NCBI GenBank assembly: GCA_964449475.1
Contig: CAYUZD010000025.1
Location: 3,672 to 17,735 of the forward strand
DNA: 14,064 bases
Direction of reading: 5' to 3'
Source: an uncultured Nitrospirales bacterium
GTDB taxonomy: Bacteria; Hydrogenedentota; Hydrogenedentia; Hydrogenedentales; GCA-2746185
A program made the translations under genes and the position numbers. Below, one piece after another: positions 1,081 to 11,823 of the stretch. Position 1 is the first letter of the stretch. Each line of letters begins with the position of its first letter. The notes beneath the pieces were generated by a model that was not told where the DNA came from, did not search any database, and saw nothing but the letters and a program-made list of their open reading frames with translations.

Positions 1081-1980
1081 CTAACCCACCCGCCGCACAC
1101 CATGCGGGATCGTGCGTACGACGGACGAAGCCACTTCCGTAAACCGCGCCGCGATCGCCTTCGCGTGCGCCTCGTCCTTGCACAGGCCGTACAACGTCGG
1201 TCCACTGCCGCTCATCGCCGCGCCCGCGCACCCCGCGTCGAGCAACCGCTGCTTCCATACCGCCAACTGCGGATATTCGGAGAACACCGGGATCTCCATC
1301 GCGTTGTGCAGTACATCGGGCAGCAGCCCGCGCGACAACGTCTCGAGCGTGTTGCGAAACGTCTTCGTTGTCCCGTCGATGCGCTCCTCGCGCGTCTTCT
1401 TCAGCATCACGTGGTTGTACACGCGCGCGGCGCTCACCTCCATCGGCGGATGCAACAACACCAGCCACGTCTCCCGCAGCGGTTCGAGCGGACGCAACAC
1501 CTCGCCCCGGCCCGTGGCCGACATCGTGCCGCCGGTTAGCACGAACGGGACATCCGATCCGAGTTCGACGCCGATCGCGCGGAGCGTCTCGACGCTCAGC
1601 CCCAGTCCCCACATCTCGTTCAGGCCCGTCAAGACCGCCGCCGCGTCCGCCGAGCCGCCGGCGAGCCCCGCCGCGATCGGAATCCGCTTCGCGAGACTGA
1701 TGTGTACACCGCGTCCAGGCGCGTACCGCTCACGCAGGATGCGCGCAGCGCGCAACGCAAGGTTGTCGGGGATCTCGAGCGCGGGATTCGTGCAGGACAA
1801 TGCCGGTTCGCCGTCGCGCGGCGTCAGCGTGACTTCGTCGGCGAGGTCAATCGACTGAAAGATCGTTTCAATGTCGTGGTAGCCGTCTGTCCGGCGGTCG
1901 ATCACCGACAGGTAGAAATTGATCTTCGCGTGGGCGTGGTACTGGAGTGGGGAGGCGGAAGAGGTGGGATGTCCGCTCAA
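1081..1980 (-). CDS. ispE: 4-(cytidine 5'-diphospho)-2-C-methyl-D-erythritol kinase (IspE, GHMP kinase family)
   Basis: N-terminal AKINFYL and the GHMP ATP-binding motif IPIAAGLAGGSADAAAVL are present, with IspE-like overall length. The start is ambiguous. A TTG at 1980 would give 299 aa and overlaps the upstream gene's TGA stop as ATTGA (translational coupling). The alternative is the GTG at 2028 (315 aa), which would overlap the upstream CDS by 52 nt. Confidence 0.85.
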   Translation of the reverse strand: MSGHPTSSASPLQYHAHAKINFYLSVIDRRTDGYHDIETIFQSIDLADEVTLTPRDGEPALSCTNPALEIPDNLALRAARILRERYAPGRGVHISLAKRIPIAAGLAGGSADAAAVLTGLNEMWGLGLSVETLRAIGVELGSDVPFVLTGGTMSATGRGEVLRPLEPLRETWLVLLHPPMEVSAARVYNHVMLKKTREERIDGTTKTFRNTLETLSRGLLPDVLHNAMEIPVFSEYPQLAVWKQRLLDAGCAGAAMSGSGPTLYGLCKDEAHAKAIAARFTEVASSVVRTIPHGVRRVG

Positions 1981-3590
1981 TCCCGGCCGCCCGCCCGCAT
2001 CTGACGCGGCGGTTCCTGCGCGCAGCACGCCATCCCGACCGCCTCGCGCACGTTCTTCTTCGGCGTGCCGACAATCTCGATCGGCCCGCCGAACCCGTGG
2101 ATCGCGTCTGCCAGCGGCCGCGACACGGCGCCGATGCGTTCGCTATCCACGCGCATCGGGCCGGCCGAAATGCCGTATGTCTGCATCACGGACATCGTCT
2201 CCGTCGCATTCTGCCATTGCGCGAGGTTGTCCGCGATCGTCAGCGTCGGCGACGGAATTACGGGGTATCCGCTCGCCGCGATCGTGAAGATCTCAAGCGC
2301 GTACAGGTCGGCCTGTTCGCGCGTCACGTTGAACTTCTGCAATACGTCGTCCGGAATCTTTGAATTCTCAACGACGAAGAACTGGTATCCCTGGTTCACC
2401 AGCTTGTCCACGCGTTCCGCGGCGAACCCGCGCGCATCTTCAATGCCCAGGTTCAGCCAGAATGTCCCGTCCGCCGCCTTCACCGTCAGTCGGCCCTCGG
2501 CGCCGTCGGCGCCGAGCGGGTCGAAACTAATCCCGGGAACCATCCCGCCCTGGATGAGGTCGCGCGCGACCTTGCCCATGTCCTTCGGGTAATCCGGCGC
2601 GCGGCCGTTCAGACTGCCGGGCGACTCCTGCCACCCCGACGGCACCAGCGCGTACTTCACGTAATTGTCTTTCCACGCCTCCGCCACGCGGAGCAGGTCC
2701 GCGGCCGGCGCGCCGTTCTGCACGGTCACCCAGCCCTTCGGCAGCGCGCCGGGGCTCGTCGTCTTCATGCCCGTCATCTCGGACCAGACGTGCGTCTGCA
2801 GGACTTGCGCGGCGTCGCTCTGGAACAGCGACATCCACACCGGGTCGCACCCGACCTTTGACTTCGGCTGGATCGTCAGCGACGGGGTGTACTCGCACCG
2901 GACCGATCCCACCCACGACTTGCCCGACGGGCGGAGGTCCACGTACGAATTCACCATCCCCGAGCGCAGCACGCCCACGCCGAGCGTCATCTTCGGCTGC
3001 CGCATCGACATCAACACCAGGCCCGCGCCGGCACCCGCGTTCATCATCGAGTAATTGCCTCGCCGCTGCGTCAGCGCCTGGGTCACCACAACCGAGTCGC
3101 CTAGTTCCGCGACCGATCCCGGGTCGAACACCGCGGGGCGGATTTCGCGAATCGCGATCGGCTGCGAACTCGGGTTCGTCAGAATGATATGGATCATCAG
3201 GAACGGGCGCGTCTTGAATCGCGCGACCGAGAAATCGACCATCAGCCCCTTGTGCGTCAGAAACAACGAACGGAATCGGGTGCCTTCGCCGAGCGGGCCG
3301 TCGAAGTCCTCGCGCTCGTCCTTCACCGCGCGCGACGAACTCAGCCGCTCGACCACGCCGTCCGCGTACTCGATCTCGCACTGCGCGTCCTTCACCAGCA
3401 CGCCGAGTTGCGAAACCTCGACCATCCATTCGCCGGTCTGAACGTCGAATTTGAACGTCGAATAGTCGCCCGTAAAGCTGTAGTGGTCCCGCAACGCCCA
3501 GGGTTTGTACTCCTCGCCAGCGGCCAAGACGGAGAACAAAAGGAGGCCTGCGGCGAGGCACAACCGACCCGCGCGCATGTACGACTGCAT
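1977..3590 (-). CDS. Secreted glycoside-hydrolase-like protein (537 aa): N-terminal signal peptide, beta-sandwich N-domain, then a GH27/GH36 (alpha-galactosidase/melibiase)-like TIM-barrel region
   Basis: The ATG at 3590 is preceded by GGAGGGGG 8 nt upstream. The signal peptide is MQSYMRAGRLCLAAGLLLFSVLAAGEE. The region ...GMVPGISFDPLGADG...WLNLGIEDARGFAAERVDKLVNQGYQFFVVEN resembles a GH27/36 catalytic barrel. The family assignment is tentative. Confidence 0.65.
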   Translation of the reverse strand: MQSYMRAGRLCLAAGLLLFSVLAAGEEYKPWALRDHYSFTGDYSTFKFDVQTGEWMVEVSQLGVLVKDAQCEIEYADGVVERLSSSRAVKDEREDFDGPLGEGTRFRSLFLTHKGLMVDFSVARFKTRPFLMIHIILTNPSSQPIAIREIRPAVFDPGSVAELGDSVVVTQALTQRRGNYSMMNAGAGAGLVLMSMRQPKMTLGVGVLRSGMVNSYVDLRPSGKSWVGSVRCEYTPSLTIQPKSKVGCDPVWMSLFQSDAAQVLQTHVWSEMTGMKTTSPGALPKGWVTVQNGAPAADLLRVAEAWKDNYVKYALVPSGWQESPGSLNGRAPDYPKDMGKVARDLIQGGMVPGISFDPLGADGAEGRLTVKAADGTFWLNLGIEDARGFAAERVDKLVNQGYQFFVVENSKIPDDVLQKFNVTREQADLYALEIFTIAASGYPVIPSPTLTIADNLAQWQNATETMSVMQTYGISAGPMRVDSERIGAVSRPLADAIHGFGGPIEIVGTPKKNVREAVGMACCAQEPPRQMRAGGRD

Positions 3591-3640
3591 ACTGCCCCCT
3601 CCGGCGCCAACCCCTCGCGCCCTGTTGTGTAAACCATTGA

Positions 3641-3646
3641 ATTATA
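3641..3646 (-). promoter_or_regulatory. Perfect TATAAT -10 hexamer on the minus strand, 51 nt upstream of the glycoside-hydrolase-like gene start
   Basis: Plus-strand ATTATA at 3641-3646 is TATAAT on the minus strand. It sits in the AT-rich 135-nt divergent intergenic region. No good -35 was found. Confidence 0.35.
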
Positions 3647-3663
3647 CCGGATTCCGGCGAAAG

Positions 3664-3692
3664 TTGTGTACTATTCGATGACCATTTATACC
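3664..3692 (+). promoter_or_regulatory. Candidate sigma70-like promoter for the GTPase operon (TTGTGT-N17-TATACC)
   Basis: The hexamers are read from the sequence in the AT-rich gap and would give a leader of about 23 nt to the ATG at 3726. The candidate promoter overlaps the alternative ATG at 3666, which supports start 3726. The consensus match is weak. Confidence 0.3.
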
Positions 3693-3725
3693 CACCAACC
3701 GCGGCGGCCTGCACCCGAATCCAGC

Positions 3726-5501
3726 ATGGAAAACCCTATCGGAGATGGACTCACCGCGTTCGAGGCCGCCCTGGGCCGCCTCGACGCCGCGCTGGCTCCC
3801 TACGCCGAACTCCACGGGGAAGTTTTCGCCGAGTCCCAGGCCTGGCGCGACCTGCTTACCTACAAACTCGTCCCGCACATGGCGGGTACCGGCTGCCTCG
3901 TCGCCGCGGTCACCGGCGGCACCAACACCGGCAAATCGACCGTGTTCAATCTGCTCGTGGGCCGCACCGCGAGTCCCATGGCCAGCACCGCCGCCGCCAC
4001 CTGCCACCCCGTGCTCGCCGCCAACGCCCGGCGCGCGGCCGAATCGCTCGACGCCAAGCTCGTGCCCGAATTCAAACCGCGCACGCTCGATGTCGCCGCG
4101 CACGCGACCGATCCCGCGCTGCCCGCCGAGGCGCTCTTCGTCGTACGCGACGATTCGCTGCCCGATCATCTCGTGCTGATGGACACGCCCGACGTCGATT
4201 CCATCATGCGGCAGAACTGGGAGGTCACCGCGCACCTCCGCGCGGCCGGCGACGTCATGATCGCCGTCATCACCGGCGAGAAGTACAAGGACGACCGCGT
4301 CGTGCAGTTTTTCCGCCAGGCCGCCGCGTCCGGGCGCGTGATCGTCCCCGTGATGAACAAGGCGAACCCGGCGAACGACTTCGCCGTCGCGCGCCGCCAG
4401 CTCGCCGATTTCTGCGCGGATGTCGGGACCGATTCACCGGTCTTCGTGATCCCGCACGATTTCAGCATCGGCGACAACCTGCAAACGCCCGTCCGCGCAC
4501 TCGACGGCGCGCTCGAACTGCGCGCGCATCTCGAATCGCTCGACGTCGCCGCGATCAAGTCCCGCGTCTACGAGGGCACCGTCGCCCGGTTCATCGCCGA
4601 CGCCGAATCGTTCCTCGGCCGGCTCGAGGCCGCCGCCGAACCCCTCCGCGAAGTGGACGACGCGCTTGCCGGACTCGTGGACGCCGCCGCCGAAACGTAC
4701 GACCCCGTGCCCGGCCGCGAGGTCGGCGGACTCTTTCATGCCTACGTCCAGTCCAAGCGCGGGCCCATTCGCCGCACCATCGGCGCGACCAGCGCCACCG
4801 TCGTGCGCGGTGCCGGCGCGCTCACCCGCGCCGTCCGCGGCGCCTTCGTCCGCCGCGCCACGCTCGAGGCGCCCGACACGCCCGCCGCAAACGCCGCCGA
4901 TGACGCGCTGCGTGCGTTGCACCGCGACGCGGTCGAACGCATCGCGCGGGACCTCGTCGCCGAGTGCGCCGATCGCGCGCGCACCTTCGGCCAGCCTGCC
5001 CGCGGCATCATCGGCGATCGCTTCGCCGAACTCGATGCGGAGGCGGCCTGTGCCGCCGTGTCCGCCGAGGCGTTGCACCCGGGTCCCCTCTCCGAAGCGT
5101 TTGAGCAGCATGCGCAGAAGACGCTCGACGCATGGTGGCAGGACCACAAGGGCCGCCGCCGCGCGCTCGAGGCGCTCGACGCCGTCCTCTCCGTGATGCC
5201 CGCCGCCATCGCCGCGCCGATCGCGCTGCACACCGGCGGGCTCGGCGCGGCGGAGGCCGCCGTGTTCCTCGGACCGTTCGCGGCGCAGTTCGTCGCGCGC
5301 GTGATGGAGTACCAGTTCGGCGACGCACTCTTCGATTTCCTGTCGCCGTGGAAGAAGGAGCAGCGGGCCCGCCTGCGCGGCGCGCTCGCGGCGCACGTCG
5401 CCGGCGCGGGGCTCGCGCCGCTCCATGCCGCCCTCGGCGCGATGCAGGGCGAACCCCTCGACACCATGCGGAGCGCGCTCGAATCATGCCGGAATCGCTG
5501 A
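3726..5501 (+). CDS. Dynamin-like / mitofusin-like large P-loop GTPase, soluble partner (591 aa), with non-canonical G3 and G4 motifs
   Basis: Walker A/G1 AAVTGGTNTGKST (GKS at about nt 3930-3938). G3-like hhhhDTPD (LVLMDTPDVDS, 4182-4193). G4-like NKAN (4356-4367). A long alpha-helical, Ala-rich C-terminal half follows. Start 3726 (MENPIG...) is preferred over 3666 because codons in 3666-3725 (ATT, TAT, CAA) are atypical for this genome and a promoter candidate overlaps that region. It is a paralog of the downstream gene. Confidence 0.8.
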   Translation: MENPIGDGLTAFEAALGRLDAALAPYAELHGEVFAESQAWRDLLTYKLVPHMAGTGCLVAAVTGGTNTGKSTVFNLLVGRTASPMASTAAATCHPVLAANARRAAESLDAKLVPEFKPRTLDVAAHATDPALPAEALFVVRDDSLPDHLVLMDTPDVDSIMRQNWEVTAHLRAAGDVMIAVITGEKYKDDRVVQFFRQAAASGRVIVPVMNKANPANDFAVARRQLADFCADVGTDSPVFVIPHDFSIGDNLQTPVRALDGALELRAHLESLDVAAIKSRVYEGTVARFIADAESFLGRLEAAAEPLREVDDALAGLVDAAAETYDPVPGREVGGLFHAYVQSKRGPIRRTIGATSATVVRGAGALTRAVRGAFVRRATLEAPDTPAANAADDALRALHRDAVERIARDLVAECADRARTFGQPARGIIGDRFAELDAEAACAAVSAEALHPGPLSEAFEQHAQKTLDAWWQDHKGRRRALEALDAVLSVMPAAIAAPIALHTGGLGAAEAAVFLGPFAAQFVARVMEYQFGDALFDFLSPWKKEQRARLRGALAAHVAGAGLAPLHAALGAMQGEPLDTMRSALESCRNR

Positions 5502-7138
5502 ACGAACTGTTGCACACGCTGGACGCGCTCGCGGCCTATGCCGGGCCGTGGGAGCCGCTCCGGCGCGAGGCGGACCTGCTCCGCGCGCGGCTCGACGAAC
5601 TCCGCGAGCGCGAGGTCCGGCTCGACGACCTGCTCGTCGTCGCGCTCGTCGGCGGGTCCGGTGTCGGCAAATCGACGCTGCTCAACGCGCTCGCGGGCGA
5701 CGAACTCGCGAAGACGTCCGAGTACCGCCCGTGCACCGCGATCCCCACGATCTATCACCCGCCCGGCGCGCGGTTGCCCTTCGGCGAAGGCTGGGAACGC
5801 AAGTCCGGTTCCGCGCTCGAAAACCTCGTCATCGTGGACACGCCCGACTCCGACACCATCGTCCGCGAGCATCGCGCGCTCGTGCAGCAGGCGTTGCGCG
5901 AGTGCGATCTCGTCGTAATGTGCGCGGACTCGGAAAAATATCTCGACGAAGCGACGTGGTCCCTCCTGCGCCCGCTCAAGGACGAGCGCGCGCTCGTCTG
6001 CGTTGAGACCAAGGCCTCAGCCGCGCCGAGCATCCGAGAGGACTGGTTGCGGCGGCTCGGCGAGGCCGGCATCCGCGTCTCCGGTTACTTCCGCGTGAAC
6101 AGCATCCGCACCTTCGACCGGAAAGTCGCGGGCCGCGCGCCCGGCCCGGACGAGTACGACTTCGCCGCGCTCGAGGCGTTCCTCGCGAAGGAACTGACCG
6201 CCGACCGCATCCGCCGCATCAAACGCTCGAACACCGCCGGGCTCCTCGCAAAGACCATCGCCACGCTCGAAGAACGCGTCGCCGCGCGCACACCGGGCCT
6301 CGACGAGGCGGACGCCGCACTGCGCGCCGCGGAGGCCGCGCTCGCGCAAACCGCGCACGACATCGTGCGCCGGCGCCTGTTTACCGAACCGCACCTCTGG
6401 AACTACGCGCTCGGCCGCGAGATCGGCCTGCGCTCGAAGGGGTTCGTCGGCGCGCTTTATCGTCTGGTCGAATCGGTCCGCACACTGCCCGCGCGCCTCT
6501 CCACGTGGTCGCTCTGGCCCGTGCGGTCCGCCGCCGGCCACCGCGCCGCGCGCATTCTCGGCGACGCCGGTCTCTTCGAGGAACACCTCGACCTTGGCTC
6601 CGACGAACTTCGCCGCGCGTTCGACTCGCAGGCCAGCCACGTCCGTCTCGCGATGGCGCAGGCGGGGTTCGCGCCGATCGCGCGCGACGGCGAGTTTGAG
6701 GCGTTCACCGCGAAACTCAGCGTGGCCGTCGAGACCGTCCTGCGCGGCCCCGCACGCGATCGCGTCGTCGCGCGGGCCCGCGCGCTCACAAGCTGGCCGC
6801 TCGCCGTCCTGCTCGACGCCGCGCCGGTCGGATTCTTCGGCTACACCGCGTTCCTGCTCGTCACGGATTACTTCCAGGCGGATGTCTGGACCGGCCCGGA
6901 ACTGATCCACGCGACCACCGTCCTCGGGATCATGCTCGTCGTCGAAATCTTCGGGCTGTCCGCCGCCGCGCGGTTCCTCGCGTGGAACGCCCGCCGCGCC
7001 GCCGCGCGCGATCTCCGGCTCGCACTCGCGCCCGGCACGCACGCATTCGCCGCCGAACAGCAAACGGTCGCCGAGGCACGGGCGCTGGTGGCTCAGTTGG
7101 ATCGCGCGTCCGAATCAATGCGCGAGAACGCGCGGTAA
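5486..7138 (+). CDS. Dynamin-like / mitofusin-like large P-loop GTPase, membrane-anchored partner (550 aa), with a C-terminal transmembrane hairpin
   Basis: The ATG at 5486 is in frame inside the long 5132..7138 ORF and overlaps the upstream stop (5499-5501) by 16 nt. G1 VALVGGSGVGKST. G3-like VIVDTPDSDT (5837-5848). Conserved EKYLDE. G4-like TKAS (6008-6019). Two adjacent hydrophobic helices near the C-terminus: LAVLLDAAPVGFFGYTAFLLVTDYF and TTVLGIMLVVEIFGLSAAARFLAW. The Arg-rich N-terminal extension 5132-5485 is rejected as an out-of-frame overlap with the upstream gene. Confidence 0.8.
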   Translation: MPESLNELLHTLDALAAYAGPWEPLRREADLLRARLDELREREVRLDDLLVVALVGGSGVGKSTLLNALAGDELAKTSEYRPCTAIPTIYHPPGARLPFGEGWERKSGSALENLVIVDTPDSDTIVREHRALVQQALRECDLVVMCADSEKYLDEATWSLLRPLKDERALVCVETKASAAPSIREDWLRRLGEAGIRVSGYFRVNSIRTFDRKVAGRAPGPDEYDFAALEAFLAKELTADRIRRIKRSNTAGLLAKTIATLEERVAARTPGLDEADAALRAAEAALAQTAHDIVRRRLFTEPHLWNYALGREIGLRSKGFVGALYRLVESVRTLPARLSTWSLWPVRSAAGHRAARILGDAGLFEEHLDLGSDELRRAFDSQASHVRLAMAQAGFAPIARDGEFEAFTAKLSVAVETVLRGPARDRVVARARALTSWPLAVLLDAAPVGFFGYTAFLLVTDYFQADVWTGPELIHATTVLGIMLVVEIFGLSAAARFLAWNARRAAARDLRLALAPGTHAFAAEQQTVAEARALVAQLDRASESMRENAR

Positions 7139-7142
7139 CGCG

Positions 7143-9191
7143 TTACTGCTGCGGCGTCGCGGGCGCTTCCTCGGCGGGAGCGGTTTCGACCGGCGCGGCC
7201 TCGACAGGCGCAGATTCCACCGGCGCGCCCTCGGTCGCTTCCGGAATGATCACCGGCGTATCAACCGCCTGCTCCGCGTCCTCGGCCTGTTGCTCCGCGG
7301 CCGGTGCGGGCGCTGCGGGGAGCGGCGACGCCGGAGTGGTTGCCGCGGCGTCCTTCAGCCCGAGAATCTCGAACACCAGGTCGTAATCCTTCTGGATCTG
7401 CGCGGCGTCGTTCGCCTCCGCGACAAGGTATTGCATGTAGTCCATCCGCCGCTGGAGCTGACGCGTCGCGAGCAGTTGCTGCTTGATCTCCGCCTTCTCC
7501 GTCTCGAACTGCGCGTCCCACGTCTCGCCTTCGGGCACGGTCTTCTCGACAAGTTCGATGAACTGCGGCACGCGCAGCATGTCCACATACGGTCCGGTGA
7601 AGCTGCCCACGTCCTCGCCGATCAGCCGGCCGAACACCTGCCGCGTGTCGATGAACAGCCCCTGGCTGAACAGCATGTCGTCCATGCCGAACGGCGTCGT
7701 TTCTTTCACCGTAAGCGGCAATTCGGGGAACTTCGCCTGCACGTCCGCGACGCTCGTCGCTTCCTCGGAAATCCGCTTCACGTAGTTCGACACGCGTTCC
7801 TGGTACTCAGGCGTCGCCTTGTGGTCGCGCTCTGCCGCCGTCACCACGTCCGCGCGCGCCTCGTCGAACGTCCGCTGCACCGGCGGATGCAATTCGGCCA
7901 CCTGTGCGATGAACAGGTTTTCGCCGCCCTCGATCACCTGCGAGAGCTGGTCCACCGCCAACTCCGACACGTCCCGCCGGAACTGGAACGAATCCGCCTC
8001 TGAAATCCCCTCGATGGTCTCCGTCCGCGCGGAGAACCGCCCGGTCCGCTTCACCTCGAGACCCGCGTCCGCCGCCGCGACGTGCAGCCCGGCGTTGCCC
8101 GCGGCCGCCGCCGCCCGCAGCGCGTCCGCCTGCGCCTTGCGCGCGGCCTTCTCCGTCTCATCCAGCACGGGCCGCAGCAGAATCTGCCGCGCATGGGCCT
8201 CGCGATTGCCCTGCGCGTCCGTGCGGACCTCTTCCACCTTGTAAATGTGCAGCCCGAGCACGCTGCGCACCGGCCCGCGCACTTCGCCTGGCTGCATCTC
8301 GAACAGTACCTTCTCGTGCTCGCGCAACCCCGCCGACTCGTTGATCCAGCCCAGGTCGCCGCCGCTGTCCGCGTCGAACGACTCCGAATGCGCCTTCGCC
8401 AGTTCCCCGAAGTCCTCGCCCGCGTTCGCCTTCGCGATGATCTCGTCCACCAGCGGCGGCACCGGCGGCAGAATCGACACCGCGATGTATTCCGCCACGC
8501 GCTCGTCCGGCGTCATGAACTGGTCGAGATTCGCATCGTAGAACGCGCGCAGCTCTTCGTCGGTCAGCGGAACAGTCGGTTCGACGCCGATCGCCTTGAC
8601 CTTCAGCTTCGTGTTCCGATCGTTGAAGAAGTCGCGGATTTCCGCCTGCGTCACGCGCGCCGACGCGCCGATCAGATACAAATACGTGTCGTTGTTGATC
8701 TGGTCCGCCATGCTGCTGAAAAACGCGTCCCAGTTGAATTTCGACGTCGTCGCGTTCTGCACCCACTGGTTGTACAGGCTCGCGTCGAACTCGCCCTGCT
8801 CGTTCTGGAAATACGGGTCTTCCTTCAGCCGCTCGTGCAGGAAATCGTCGTCCGGCCGCACCGGCTGGTCCTTCGTCTGCTCCTTCACCAGCGCCTGGTT
8901 CACCAGGCTGTCCAGGATCGCGTCCACGGTCCCGTCGCTCACCAGGTCCTGCGCCGTCGCCGGCTGGCCGTACCGTTGCCGCTCGTCCTGCGCCTGCAGG
9001 AACCGCTGGTAGAACTCCTCCGCCGTTACCGGCGTCGAGCCCGCCTGCGCCACCGTCACTCCGGTCCCCGGCGCCGAACCGAACGTGAATTGCGCCGCGC
9101 CGGGGATGAAGAACACCATCGGCAGACCAATGAACAGGAAAATGAGAAGTCCGCCGAGACGCTTGTGGCGGTTCACGCGATCGAAAAGCAC
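7143..9191 (-). CDS. ppiD: Membrane-anchored periplasmic chaperone / peptidyl-prolyl cis-trans isomerase, PpiD-like (SurA-type with parvulin domain), with a Pro/Ala/Glu-rich C-terminal extension
   Basis: The GTG start at 9191 has AGGAG 8 nt upstream. There is an N-terminal TM helix (RLGGLLIFLFIGLPMVFFIP) and a parvulin signature (DFGELAKAHSESFDADSGGDLGWI). The 682-aa length fits PpiD. The C-terminal (APVEx)n repeats are encoded by 15-nt tandem units at 7150-7230. Confidence 0.75.
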   Translation of the reverse strand: MLFDRVNRHKRLGGLLIFLFIGLPMVFFIPGAAQFTFGSAPGTGVTVAQAGSTPVTAEEFYQRFLQAQDERQRYGQPATAQDLVSDGTVDAILDSLVNQALVKEQTKDQPVRPDDDFLHERLKEDPYFQNEQGEFDASLYNQWVQNATTSKFNWDAFFSSMADQINNDTYLYLIGASARVTQAEIRDFFNDRNTKLKVKAIGVEPTVPLTDEELRAFYDANLDQFMTPDERVAEYIAVSILPPVPPLVDEIIAKANAGEDFGELAKAHSESFDADSGGDLGWINESAGLREHEKVLFEMQPGEVRGPVRSVLGLHIYKVEEVRTDAQGNREAHARQILLRPVLDETEKAARKAQADALRAAAAAGNAGLHVAAADAGLEVKRTGRFSARTETIEGISEADSFQFRRDVSELAVDQLSQVIEGGENLFIAQVAELHPPVQRTFDEARADVVTAAERDHKATPEYQERVSNYVKRISEEATSVADVQAKFPELPLTVKETTPFGMDDMLFSQGLFIDTRQVFGRLIGEDVGSFTGPYVDMLRVPQFIELVEKTVPEGETWDAQFETEKAEIKQQLLATRQLQRRMDYMQYLVAEANDAAQIQKDYDLVFEILGLKDAAATTPASPLPAAPAPAAEQQAEDAEQAVDTPVIIPEATEGAPVESAPVEAAPVETAPAEEAPATPQQ

Positions 9192-9394: not shown

Positions 9395-9470
9395 GGGGGT
9401 ATAGCTCAGTTGGGAGAGCGCCTCGCTGGCAGCGAGGAGGCCAGGGGTTCGACTCCCCTTACCTCCACCA
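9395..9470 (+). tRNA. tRNA-Ala, anticodon GGC, 76 nt with genomically encoded CCA
   Basis: Manually folded. The acceptor stem GGGGGTA/TACCTCC includes the G3:U70 wobble pair, which is the alanine identity element. D-arm GCTC-AGTTGGGA-GAGC. Anticodon stem CCTCG/CGAGG with loop CTGGCAG (anticodon GGC). Variable loop AGGCC. T-arm AGGGG-TTCGACT-CCCCT. Discriminator A plus CCA. Confidence 0.9.
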
Positions 9471-9543: not shown

Positions 9544-11208
9544 TCACGCCGCAGGCGCAACGTTTCCGTCGCCGCTCGCCGTCGACTTCGTATCGTCCAC
9601 CATCCGGATGATCGATTCGGGGAACTCGACGCCGCCCACGTCCTTCATCACCTGCATCATCGGCGGCAGGGTGTTCGCGAGGTTGTTCAGGAAGCCCGCG
9701 GCCGATCCCTTGCCATTCTCGCCGCCGTTCTCCCACACGATGACCTTGTCGAACTTGATGTTCGAGATCGCCTGCGCCGACGTGTGCGCCAGCGTGTCGA
9801 GGTGCTCCAGCATCAACAGCCGGAACGCGGAATTCGCGTCGCCGCACGCCGCCACGATCGCCTTCAACCCGTCGGCCTTCTTCGCCAGAATCTCGTATTG
9901 GCCCTTCGCTTCCGCCTCGAGCTTGGCGAAAATCGCCGCCGCCTCGCCCTCGGCCTCGAGCCGCGTCTGCTGCGCCTTTGCCTCGGCCTCCACAATCGTC
10001 CGCGCCTTCTCGGCCTTGGCCTTCGCCTCGAGTTCCGCGCGGAACTCCGCTTCGACCAGTTCCGCCTCGGCCAGCGCCGCCTTTGCCAGTGCACGGTTCT
10101 TCGCCTCGAGCACGCTCGCCTTCGCGATCTCTTCCTTCGTCGCGCCCACCTGAAACGACTCGGCTTCCTTCACGCGCAGCGTCGCATTCGACACCGCGAT
10201 CGCCGCCTTGGACTCGTTCTCGCCCTCGATCGCGCGCGCGTTCGCCTCCGCGACGCGAATGCGCATCTGCTTCTCCGAATCCTTGACCTTGATGTCCTGG
10301 TCGAATGCGGCGGCCGCCTCGCCCACTTTCGCGGTCGCGTCCGCGTTCGCGACGGACACGCGCTTCTCGCGTTCCGCCTCCTTGACCTGCACCTCGCGCT
10401 GGAACGCCGCCTGCTGCTCGCCGACGACCTGTTCCTTCTCGAGTTCTGCCACGCGCACGGCCTGTTCGCGCTTCGCCTCGCGCGTGCCGATCTCCTGCAA
10501 CTTCGTGTTGTTCGCGACCTGCACCAGCTTGTCGCGGTCCGCCTCGGCCACGCGGATTTCGCCCTTCTTGAGCTCGTCCGCCACGTCGCCGCGCGCGCGC
10601 TGGATCGCCTCGGACGCCGCCTTCTTGCCGATGGCCTCGATGTATCCCGAGTCGTCCGTGATGTCCGTGATGTTGACGTTGATCAGCACCATGCCGATCT
10701 TCCGCAGTTCCGGCTCGAGGTTCGTCTGGATGTTGTGCAGGAACGCGTCGCGGTCGCGGTTGATGTCCTCGATCCGCATCGACGCGATCACCTGGCGCAA
10801 CTGCCCGAATATGATGTCTTCCGCCTGCTTCTTGATCGCGCCCGTGTCCAGCCCCAGGAGCCGGATCGCCGCGTTGTTCATCATGTCCGGCTCGGTCCCG
10901 ATCGCCACCGTGAACACGCTCGGCACGTTGACGCGGATGTTTTCCATGGACAGCGCGTCCTTGAGCGGGATCTCGATCTGGATCGGTTCGAGGCTGAGGT
11001 ACTCGTAGTCCTGGATCAGCGGAATCACGAACGCCGCGCCGCCGTGGATGCACCGCGATGACGTGCCCGACCCGACCTTGCCGTAGATCACGAGGATCCG
11101 GTTGCTCGGGCAGCGTTTGTACCGCCGGCTCGCCAGCACGAAGAACGAGAACAGGAACAGCGCCGCGACGGTGACCGTCACGACAATCCAGATGGTGGGT
11201 TCGCCCAT
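9544..11208 (-). CDS. floT: Flotillin family protein (SPFH/band-7 domain, YqiK/FloT-like), 554 aa
   Basis: N-terminal membrane anchor (IWIVVTVTVAALFLFSFFVLA). SPFH domain. A long Glu/Ala/Lys-rich coiled-coil (EA-repeat) region. A flotillin C-terminal region. ATG at 11208, 27 nt downstream of the nfeD stop, consistent with an operon. Confidence 0.85.
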   Translation of the reverse strand: MGEPTIWIVVTVTVAALFLFSFFVLASRRYKRCPSNRILVIYGKVGSGTSSRCIHGGAAFVIPLIQDYEYLSLEPIQIEIPLKDALSMENIRVNVPSVFTVAIGTEPDMMNNAAIRLLGLDTGAIKKQAEDIIFGQLRQVIASMRIEDINRDRDAFLHNIQTNLEPELRKIGMVLINVNITDITDDSGYIEAIGKKAASEAIQRARGDVADELKKGEIRVAEADRDKLVQVANNTKLQEIGTREAKREQAVRVAELEKEQVVGEQQAAFQREVQVKEAEREKRVSVANADATAKVGEAAAAFDQDIKVKDSEKQMRIRVAEANARAIEGENESKAAIAVSNATLRVKEAESFQVGATKEEIAKASVLEAKNRALAKAALAEAELVEAEFRAELEAKAKAEKARTIVEAEAKAQQTRLEAEGEAAAIFAKLEAEAKGQYEILAKKADGLKAIVAACGDANSAFRLLMLEHLDTLAHTSAQAISNIKFDKVIVWENGGENGKGSAAGFLNNLANTLPPMMQVMKDVGGVEFPESIIRMVDDTKSTASGDGNVAPAA

Positions 11209-11235: not shown

Positions 11236-11823
11236 CTAGTCCGCCGCGGTGCCGTCGTCCAGTGAAATCTCCAGCGTGTTCGGGTCGCTGATGCCCGTAA
11301 TCTTCACGCGACTACCCGTCTTGAGTTCGCCGGCACCCGTGATCGCCGGATACGTCATCGTCCGGCCCTGCACCGATACTTCGACCTTGCCCGTGCCCGA
11401 CCGGTGGCCCGGCACGGTCAGATAGACGGTGCCCGTCGCGCCCAGCGCGTTCTGGATCCGGACGTTGCCCTCCGACTTCATCTCGTGCAGCAGGCGCATC
11501 ATGGCGGCGACGCCCAGCATCGCGGCAAACCCCAGGCCGAACGCCCACAGCAGCGCGATGAAGTTGCCCAGGTCGAACGCCAGCGCCATGCGCCCACCCA
11601 ACCCGAAAAACGCCACGAACGCCGTAACCGATCGCAGCGACAGCACGCCGAAGAACCAGTTCGACATCCCGTGGTGATCGGCGAGTTCGTCGCCCATCTC
11701 CAGGTCGTCCCCGGCCTCCATGATCGGTTCGTTGTCGCTATCGAGCCCGAACAGCGTCATCGCGACCTGCACCAGCAGGACGACGATGCCCGCCACGGCA
11801 CACACGGTGTACACGGTGATCAT
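11236..11823 (-). CDS. nfeD: NfeD-family membrane protein (YqiJ/YuaF-like), partner of flotillin, 195 aa
   Basis: Hydrophobic N-terminal half with several TM helices and a C-terminal NfeD-type OB-fold beta-barrel (TGTVYLTVPGHRSGTGKVEVSVQGRTMTYPA...GSRVKITGISDPNTLEIS). It lies immediately upstream of flotillin on the same strand, the classical nfeD-floT/yqiJK arrangement. GGAG is 8 nt upstream of the ATG. Confidence 0.8.
   Translation of the reverse strand: MITVYTVCAVAGIVVLLVQVAMTLFGLDSDNEPIMEAGDDLEMGDELADHHGMSNWFFGVLSLRSVTAFVAFFGLGGRMALAFDLGNFIALLWAFGLGFAAMLGVAAMMRLLHEMKSEGNVRIQNALGATGTVYLTVPGHRSGTGKVEVSVQGRTMTYPAITGAGELKTGSRVKITGISDPNTLEISLDDGTAAD

Follow-up and report, generated by a model that had tools for sequence, protein, structure and literature searches.

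The stretch of DNA analysed here, called the window throughout, comprises 14,064 nucleotides (positions 3,672 to 17,735 of contig CAYUZD010000025.1, assembly GCA_964449475.1) from an uncultured bacterium which is titled Nitrospirales and placed among the Hydrogenedentota by its GTDB lineage. It carries on its plus strand two genes, termed A and B, whose products are probably a pair of compact relatives of dynamins and mitofusins. Gene A (3726–5501, +; ATG at 3726, stop codon at 5499–5501) encodes 591 amino acids of a dynamin/mitofusin-like nucleoside triphosphatase, probably the peripheral partner, and gene B (5486–7138, +; ATG at 5486, stop codon at 7136–7138) encodes 550 amino acids of a second such protein with a predicted membrane hairpin near its C-terminus. 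The two reading frames share 16 nucleotides (5486–5501, +; ATGCCGGAATCGCTGA), B being read in the +2 frame relative to A, exactly as had been proposed in a preceding reading of the sequence made without database searches (the sequence-only reading). Within the end of gene A, 12 nucleotides ahead of the ATG of B, lies a Shine-Dalgarno-like GGAG (5470–5473, +), and GGAG or GGAGG precedes the start of B in many related loci as well; because these letters also code for conserved arginine codons of A, their role as a ribosome binding site is a putative one. Longer forms, in which A would start from GTG 3666 and B from ATG 5132, were considered and not supported: in alignments of about 50 homologs of each protein the N-termini coincide with those of the shorter forms, and ATG 3726 and ATG 5486 were therefore accepted as the starts. 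The region between gene A and a divergently transcribed gene for 537 amino acids (3591–3725, from the coordinates of the reading frames) presumably contains the promoter of the A-B operon. A scan for sigma-70 consensus sites, a consensus which is not informative for this phylum, found none for gene A; its sole hit was on the minus strand (3670–3641). The G+C content of the window ranges from 61 to 74%.

Proteins A and B are related to each other in their N-terminal halves. BLASTP aligned them over 160 amino acids with 26% identity (E 2e-9), and profile-profile comparison of the two family alignments by hhalign yielded a probability of 97.9% (E 4e-13) for residues 55–309 of A against residues 47–281 of B, a region which comprises the G domain and the first long helix of the stalk. 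No sequence similarity could be detected between the C-terminal halves, both of which are predicted to be all-helical, and a conserved insert between G1 and G3 (TAAATC...PEF) is found in A and not in B. By these alignments A and B are ancient paralogs in their N-terminal halves which have in common an all-helical C-terminal architecture. The earlier claim that the two proteins are paralogs thus stands for the G domain together with the first helix of the stalk and is not borne out for the C-terminal halves.

All nucleotide-binding motifs quoted in the sequence-only reading are present, and their conservation was counted over 120 homologs of each protein. The G1 motif or P-loop of A, GGTNTGKST (3915–3941, +), has an asparagine at the position given by GxxNxGKS, and GGTNTGKS is retained in 109 of the 120 homologs; its counterpart in B, GGSGVGKST (5651–5677, +), is retained in 117. 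Candidate threonines of G2/switch I are invariant (in RPCT and TAAAT). At the G3 position, preceded by the hydrophobic residues of LVLMDTPD in A and LVIVDTPD in B, stand DTPDVD (4182–4199, +; DTPD[VI]D in 117/120) and DTPDSD (5837–5854, +; 120/120). These supply the Walker B aspartate; the classical consensus of G3 is DxxG (PMC4159319), and its glycine is replaced by aspartate, giving DxPDxD, in every member of the close and of the wider family. A further motif, EKYKDD in A (4278–4295, +; K186, Y187, and D189 invariant) and EKYLDE in B (5933–5950, +; K151, Y152, and D154 invariant), is characteristic of the family, its lysine and tyrosine being invariant also among the wider relatives. The G4 motif of A is NKAN (4356–4367, +), with asparagine in place of the aspartate of NKxD (NKAN in 99/120 homologs, NKAD in 18/120). 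In B it is TKAS (6008–6019, +), where the aspartate of [NT]KxD is lost as well; the fourth position varies freely among the Hydrogenedentota, 24 of the 120 homologs having kept the aspartate. This aspartate is invariant in the wider family and lost in most proteins from Hydrogenedentota. A possible co-evolution of the nucleotide specificities of A and B, which would predict correlated losses, was contradicted by their lack of correlation across genomes (Fisher p = 0.71). Protein A has both asparagines of the potassium site, namely the one in GxxNxGKS and the one five residues after the lysine (N75), and B has the latter only. In MnmE, FeoB, and EngA these two asparagines are residues of the potassium site (PMC3466195).

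Of the canonical set of dynamin G motifs, then, G1 and the candidate G2 threonine are present, and DxxG and the G4 aspartate are absent. The label GTPase, given to both proteins before, is accordingly justified as far as a G domain with a P-loop is concerned and is not secured beyond that: where G3 reads DxPDxD and G4 has lost its aspartate, neither the nucleotide used nor hydrolysis by both partners is fixed by the sequence. There are dynamin-like ATPases, the EHD proteins, and one or both of A and B might likewise combine a dynamin-like architecture with the use of ATP or another nucleotide, or the pair might be hydrolysis-dead scaffolds which organise or stabilise membrane domains. Such an absence of a GTPase motor, which we regard as rather improbable, would agree with the universal replacement of the G3 glycine and with the state of G4, since an exchange of its aspartate for asparagine shifts other GTPases (Ras, EF-Tu, and FtsY) toward xanthine nucleotides or otherwise changes their base specificity (PMC3466195). 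Against it stand the invariance of the P-loop, the candidate switch-I threonine, the Walker B aspartate, and the potassium-site asparagines, which points to a conserved active nucleotide site, the strong purifying selection over the whole G domain, which fits catalysis, and the invariant NKxD aspartate of the wider family, which implies that the ancestral state was guanine-specific.

The C-terminal 350 residues are not spanned by any family, searches of Pfam, NCBIfam, and PDB sequences by phmmer and hmmsearch recognising the G domain only. AlphaFold2 models were built on the family alignments of both proteins. For B the model reached a mean pLDDT (predicted local distance difference test) of 83.6 and a pTM (predicted template modelling score) of 0.65, for A 82.4 and 0.77. 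Both models start with two to three N-terminal helices followed by a compact alpha/beta G domain (about residues 50–215 in B and 58–245 in A, according to the modelled secondary structure) and consist of helices only from there on; helices from both sides of the G domain make up a neck (BSE/HD1) and a trunk (stalk/HD2) in the models. The order of parts, N-terminal helices, G domain, helices, hydrophobic hairpin, and C-terminal helix, is that of BDLP and mitofusin (PMC6104087). Among known structures the closest to the models are mitofusin/Fzo1, IniA, BDLP, the dynamin-like proteins (DLPs) Cj-DLP1/2 of Campylobacter jejuni, and SynDLP, with small GTPases of the Era type ranking behind them. Model A scored 16.8 with Fzo1, 16.7 with MFN2 (over 328 residues), 15.0 with SynDLP, 14.2 with IniA, and 14.0 with OPA1. 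With MFN2, Fzo1, and IniA 230–330 residues are aligned, including the helical bundles of HD1 and neck, versus about 150 with Era. In full-length alignments by Foldseek, as an independent method, model B found IniA (E 2.9e-9) and BDLP (E 3.5e-9) first, together with Cj-DLP1/2 and MFN1, the E values ranging from 3e-9 to 1e-5. Sequence profiles point the same way for B, which passes the gathering cut-off of Pfam Dynamin_N (PF00350) with 36.6 bits (cut-off 27) and whose family profile has Nostoc BDLP as its best match among PDB sequences (E 1.5e-5). All 53 members of the B family and 39 of the 57 of the A family match Dynamin_N at E<1e-4, and the A ortholog of Ca. Hydrogenedens terephthalaticus does so with 49.7 bits over model positions 1–167 of 168. 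The dynamin-like character ascribed to the pair from sequence is thus corroborated by the fold. The remark that both proteins are small for this class, however, did not hold: with 550–590 amino acids they are not exceptional among bacterial DLPs, as the 561 amino acids of the PDB chain of IniA show.

The main rival of this assignment is that A and B are regulatory GTPases of the Era/EngA/YihA type (TEES) with an unrelated helical extension and an anchor, serving as a nucleotide-controlled membrane switch or assembly factor, for instance of a protein complex or in envelope biogenesis, rather than as mechanochemical remodellers, and resembling mitofusins by convergence. MMR_HSR1 passes its Pfam cut-off and is the best Pfam match of both proteins, and the top matches of A among NCBIfam models and PDB sequences are Era, Der, and MnmE, which come after BDLP for B. 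Moreover, the small G domain superposes on Era with 2.7–2.8 Å at 20–28% identity, A has the two potassium-site asparagines typical of TEES GTPases, and the commonest neighbouring genes of the pair, ispE and a gene for a PpiD-like protein, are housekeeping genes. The NCBIfam scores, however, amount to 20–32 bits where cut-offs are 116–380, and these matches cover the P-loop only; neither an equivalog-level score for a particular TEES family nor an accessory domain of one was found. A and B contain no KH or other RNA-binding domain and have instead about 350 residues of helical bundles which align to HD1 and neck of MFN2, Fzo1, and IniA. A simple Era/EngA/YihA fold devoid of a stalk, named beforehand as the outcome that would speak against dynamin-like proteins, was not found, and the top full-length matches of Foldseek are all members of the dynamin family. 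Helices at the N-terminus ahead of the G domain, a hairpin towards the C-terminus, and tandem paralogs are in addition hallmarks of bacterial DLPs (PMC6104087). The long structural alignments and a gene organisation like that of DLPs weaken the view that A and B are regulatory GTPases with a convergent helical extension, the compact G domain and the TEES features sustain it, and we consider it unlikely.

The C-terminal third of B contains, at the tip of the trunk, a predicted membrane element, a helical hairpin (6794–6985, +) formed by residues 437–463 and 470–500 with a short acidic loop in between. AlphaFold2 modelled its helices at residues 437–463 and 470–514 with a pLDDT of about 90. The family-mean Kyte-Doolittle score over 19 residues (KD19) is 1.41 for the first helix and 2.27 for the second, and lysine plus arginine residues average 5.0 and 3.75 in the two flanks of 20 residues versus 0.13 in the loop. 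This distribution of charges fits the positive-inside signature of a transmembrane anchor with both ends in the cytoplasm (N-in/C-in), a predicted topology in which G domain and stalk would stay cytoplasmic. The hairpin, including the glutamate within its second helix, is kept in a full-length homolog from Verrucomicrobiota (E 4e-38). The membrane hairpin proposed for B is in this way upheld by confident modelling, conservation, and the charges of its flanks.

That B alone has two hydrophobic helices proved only partly right. The pair in B is the stronger one, and A also contains a conserved pair of hydrophobic helices at residues 480–524 (5163–5297, +), which are connected by a turn of five residues (TGGLG). 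With family-mean KD19 values of 1.81 and 1.26, an acidic C-terminal flank, and pLDDT values of 46–67 this pair resembles a paddle or buried hairpin, possibly a monotopic element, more than it does a transmembrane anchor. Acidic residues in the middle of the hydrophobic helices are present in 118–120 of the 120 homologs of either protein, namely D444 (6815–6817) and E487 (6944–6946) in B and D485 (5178–5180) and E510 (5253–5255) in A. Since the hydropathy of these helices in the single sequences of A and B is no higher than in shuffles of the two alanine-, leucine-, and valine-rich proteins, the case for the hairpins is built on conservation and charge distribution. Insertion energies of the Hessa type were calculated without position weighting and are indicative only.

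For the distribution of the pair one genome per species was scanned, which gave 103 relatives; 80 loci were retained. Relatives come nearly all from Hydrogenedentota, about 100 species, with identities down to 30% (Ca. Hydrogenedens terephthalaticus). The closest ones, about 350 clusters for B and about 250 for A at at least 50% identity and of the same length, are, where named, Candidatus Hydrogenedentes/Hydrogenedentota metagenome-assembled genomes (MAGs). In nearly all of the 80 loci that contain upstream DNA a homolog of A directly precedes B, and the two genes overlap by 4–28 nucleotides in 71 of the 73 measurable junctions (19 nucleotides in 26 loci, 16 in 22, and 28 in 13). The only two breaks (L050:6677–7962 and L068:2390–3642) are due to the same insert of two genes, which encode paralogous membrane proteins of the bPH_2 type (bacterial PH domain, YdbS/YdbT-like), and the position of such genes between A and B fits a membrane-related operon. 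At E<1e-3 a search with the B profile, run without a word index, retrieved 3,874 cluster representatives, of which 1,567 also reach E<1e-10; their lengths are mostly 550–660 amino acids. Named members of this wider family belong to Verrucomicrobiota, Planctomycetota (Isosphaeraceae, Tepidisphaeraceae), Tectomicrobia/Entotheonellia, and Acidobacteriota; their database labels are "hypothetical", "GTPase", "50S ribosome-binding GTPase", "EcfA2", "SAR1 family", and "EngB", and once "dynamin family protein". Abutting or overlapping pairs of A-like and B-like genes occur also in Pirellulales, Isosphaeraceae, Tepidisphaeraceae, and one further lineage. The expectation that homologous pairs would be neighbours across genomes is hence confirmed and reaches into the Planctomycetota. 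A tandem of paralogs in one operon, as found here, is typical of bacterial DLPs, most of which are encoded as such side-by-side pairs (PMC6104087, PMC4159319). The A-B pair is old and strongly, if not universally, linked, and its distribution among the species scanned suggests vertical inheritance rather than the patchy spread of a mobile defence island.

Some observations on individual genomes are recorded here. In a MAG of the Pirellulales (L082:7929–9714) the B-like gene is broken up into two reading frames of 402 and 239 amino acids which overlap, probably by a frameshift or an assembly error in this long-read MAG. Many TPA-assembled MAGs with close homologs (L004, L005, L010, L012, and others), which share as much as 86% of their residues with B, carry the title "uncultured Nitrospirales/Nitrospiraceae bacterium"; the other named sources are Hydrogenedentota, apart from single MAGs of Rhodothermaeota and of the FCB group. 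The Nitrospirales and Nitrospiraceae labels on such TPA MAGs are probably taxonomic mis-assignments. The Hydrogenedentota MAG JAJRPE01 (L040, L072) contains two different A-B pairs, with 48% and 62% identity to B of the window, which points to a true duplication or else to a bin of mixed origin.

Taken together, A and B are best described as an operon-encoded heterotypic pair of compact dynamin-superfamily proteins, nearest to the mitofusin/BDLP branch, which would serve as a membrane tether or remodeller, a description we hold to be probable while a number of findings weigh against it. The G domains of 165–190 amino acids are of the size of Era and not of the dynamin G domain, which with its specific insertions has about 300 amino acids, and outside the family their best sequence matches are MMR_HSR1, EngA, and Era. 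Protein A of the window stays with 23.6 bits under the Dynamin_N cut-off of 27. Structural evidence consists of AlphaFold models throughout, in which the lead of dynamin-family matches over Era is modest, about 2–4 Z units, and the template modelling scores (TM-scores) of Foldseek are low, 0.26–0.38, and 0.5 versus mini-MFN1, as expected for hinged proteins of several domains. With DxxG and the NKxD aspartate missing in both window proteins, binding or hydrolysis of GTP may be altered or lost in them. The first helix of the hairpin of B is marginally hydrophobic and contains an invariant aspartate and a proline. Finally, two members of the wider family (L085 and L087) are solo genes, so pairing is not obligatory.

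For a heterotypic tether or remodeller of this kind the following mechanism can be envisaged. A and B would be made in roughly equal amounts by coupled translation and would act as a hetero-oligomer, in which membrane-bound B would recruit A. Nucleotide binding would then drive dimerisation of the G domains and hinge movements of the helical bundles, and these movements might remodel the cytoplasmic membrane, be it by tethering, fusion, sealing, or in some other way. Such is the presumed action of Cj-DLP1/2, of Streptomyces DynA/DynB, of Bacillus subtilis DynA, and of mitofusins and atlastins.

A and B share with Cj-DLP1/2 and with BDLP1/2 of Nostoc the side-by-side paralogous genes in one operon and the sequence of N-terminal helices, G domain, and helical neck and trunk, the C-terminal third containing a lipid-binding element, which is a predicted one in the window. 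Compared to these proteins they are 100–150 amino acids shorter, are only 13–18% identical, and have G domains of about 170 amino acids with DxPDxD for DxxG and without the G4 aspartate; moreover, B has a predicted transmembrane-type hairpin where BDLP has a transient paddle. The layout of a membrane-anchored protein plus a partner, deduced here for B and A, resembles Streptomyces DynA/DynB, an operon pair in which DynB is anchored through two transmembrane segments and interacts with DynA (PMC8748795). The Streptomyces proteins act at sporulation septa together with FtsZ, SepF, and SsgB, whereas no division genes flank A and B. No structure of the Streptomyces proteins surfaced in the fold searches, and the differences in motifs are expected to be those from other bacterial DLPs.

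With mitofusin and Fzo1 the pair would have in common the permanent membrane attachment by helices at the tip (PMC6104087) and the occurrence of heterotypic pairs of isoforms. Sequence identities to these proteins are only 12–17%, and signs of a direct ancestry did not turn up, no search aimed at them having been made. Mitofusins, with about 740–850 amino acids, have a large G domain in which DxxG and NRxD are canonical and a long HD2/HR2 following the transmembrane region. Mycobacterial IniA has the BDLP fold according to the published description (PMC6715688). It differs from A and B in being induced by drug stress, in the iniBAC operon together with IniC. A canonical G3 is expected in IniA. 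Atlastin and Sey1 are similar to B in order and size of their parts, that is, a G domain, a helical bundle, two close transmembrane helices, and a short C-terminal helix within about 550 amino acids; the GBP-type large G domain and the three-helix-bundle middle domain of the atlastin/GBP proteins were not found in A and B. By analogy, atlastin and Sey1 could be a useful model for how B might work. The TEES proteins Era, EngA/Der, and MnmE, finally, share with the pair MMR_HSR1 above cut-off and, with A, the asparagine of GxxNxGKS and the one at five residues after the lysine; the additional helical residues, the predicted membrane hairpin, the tandem paralog, and the lack of a KH or RNA-binding domain set A and B apart from them.

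The surroundings of the operon were compared in about 80 loci by clustering all reading frames of at least 90 amino acids up to 5 kb away from the pair. No conserved third gene and no obligate partner emerged: the largest cluster of neighbours, ispE, is present in 21 loci only, followed by the secreted protein of 537 amino acids upstream (15 loci) and PpiD downstream (8 loci), and the genes flanking more distant relatives are entirely different. In the window ispE (1081–2028, −; TIGR00154, 243 bits), which encodes CDP-ME (4-diphosphocytidyl-2-C-methyl-D-erythritol) kinase, has a longest reading frame which overlaps the end of the gene for 537 amino acids by 52 nucleotides. The ispE ortholog of locus L002 has 299 amino acids and overlaps by one nucleotide, which indicates that the true ispE start of the window is probably further downstream. 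The product of the 537-amino-acid gene (1977–3590, −), which is divergent from gene A, starts with a segment resembling a signal peptide and has no match in Pfam, NCBIfam, or PADLOC. On the other side a gene for a PpiD-like periplasmic chaperone of 682 amino acids with SurA_N and rotamase domains (7143–9191, −) converges on gene B, with four nucleotides between the stop codons and no terminator-like hairpin, although the terminator scan as such was uninformative. A tRNA (9395–9467, +; Rfam RF00005, 67.7 bits), the only hit of the Rfam scan and well outside the A-B operon, separates it from a gene for a FloT-like flotillin, a Band_7/SPFH protein of 554 amino acids (9544–11208, −; NCBIfam 125 bits at a cut-off of 700), upstream of which lies a reading frame of 195 amino acids (11236–11823, −). 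Flotillins and DynA have been linked functionally in Bacillus. The flotillin-like gene of the window, 2.4 kb downstream of B, is in no neighbour cluster common to other loci of the set. Further flanking genes encode a TIGR02757/DUF2400 protein and a flavoenzyme of the old yellow enzyme (OYE) type. A and B are thus a self-contained two-gene module in housekeeping surroundings, in agreement with the view taken of the locus from its sequence.

The hint at a link to phage defence, given on the same occasion, found no such backing. In this explanation A and B would be a dynamin-type anti-phage system in the manner of LeoABC ("Dynamins") or DynA which delays lysis or seals the membranes of infected cells. 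B. subtilis DynA aids phage defence via membrane binding, as one report states (PMC12998192), and PADLOC models of LeoA and LeoBC gave weak matches (E 2.6e-6 and 2.3e-4 for B, 2.6e-3 for A). These matches, however, span some 40–65 residues at the P-loop of models with 559–601 positions, no flanking protein of the window matches any PADLOC model, and neither a full-length LeoA/LeoBC match nor a defence-island context was found. The neighbours are housekeeping genes that differ between lineages, and the occurrence of A and B in the representative genomes of about 100 species, almost all from one phylum and diverged to 30% identity, suggests vertical inheritance rather than a patchy spread. A function in defence is accordingly very improbable. 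Conservation of the pair across the whole phylum in housekeeping contexts makes membrane maintenance or division likelier than phage defence, and by analogy with the characterised proteins A and B would most likely be a housekeeping membrane tether or remodeller.

Paired bacterial DLPs, even with one partner anchored by transmembrane segments, are already known, so the organisation of A and B itself is not new. New are the large unstudied family with a minimal G domain and a different invariant G3 motif, the asymmetric potassium-site signature, and the clade-specific loss of the residue for guanine specificity. Bacterial dynamin-like proteins are few and poorly understood and have been studied mainly in Firmicutes, Actinobacteria, Cyanobacteria, and Proteobacteria. 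A literature search on such proteins in Hydrogenedentes found nothing, and one on Planctomycetes and Verrucomicrobia nothing specific to the A/B family. It is conceivable, though we would not at present expect it, that A and B represent an undescribed, ancient, and minimal branch of the dynamin/mitofusin proteins which works as an asymmetric heterotypic tether or fusogen and unites an Era-sized G domain with invariant DxPDxD, potassium-site asparagines in one partner, and a transmembrane hairpin with intramembrane acidic residues. Such a branch would be a core component of Hydrogenedentota and common to Planctomycetota, with B-type relatives in Verrucomicrobiota and Tectomicrobia, and its Hydrogenedentota clade would have switched away from strict guanine specificity. 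If this were true, A and B could link TEES-type small GTPases and dynamin-like mechanoenzymes.

With about 1,570 cluster representatives at E<1e-10 the family to which A and B belong is large and uncharacterised. Their small size and high predicted order make both proteins a good target for structure determination and reconstitution, and the natural asymmetry of the pair, in which one partner has the full potassium-site signature, is suited to dissect heterotypic DLP function. The pair is kept in the uncultured phylum Hydrogenedentota and in the Planctomycetota, whose membrane organisation has been of interest for a long time, and its stripped-down mitofusin/BDLP architecture with a different G3 motif could reveal which parts of the dynamin engine are indispensable.

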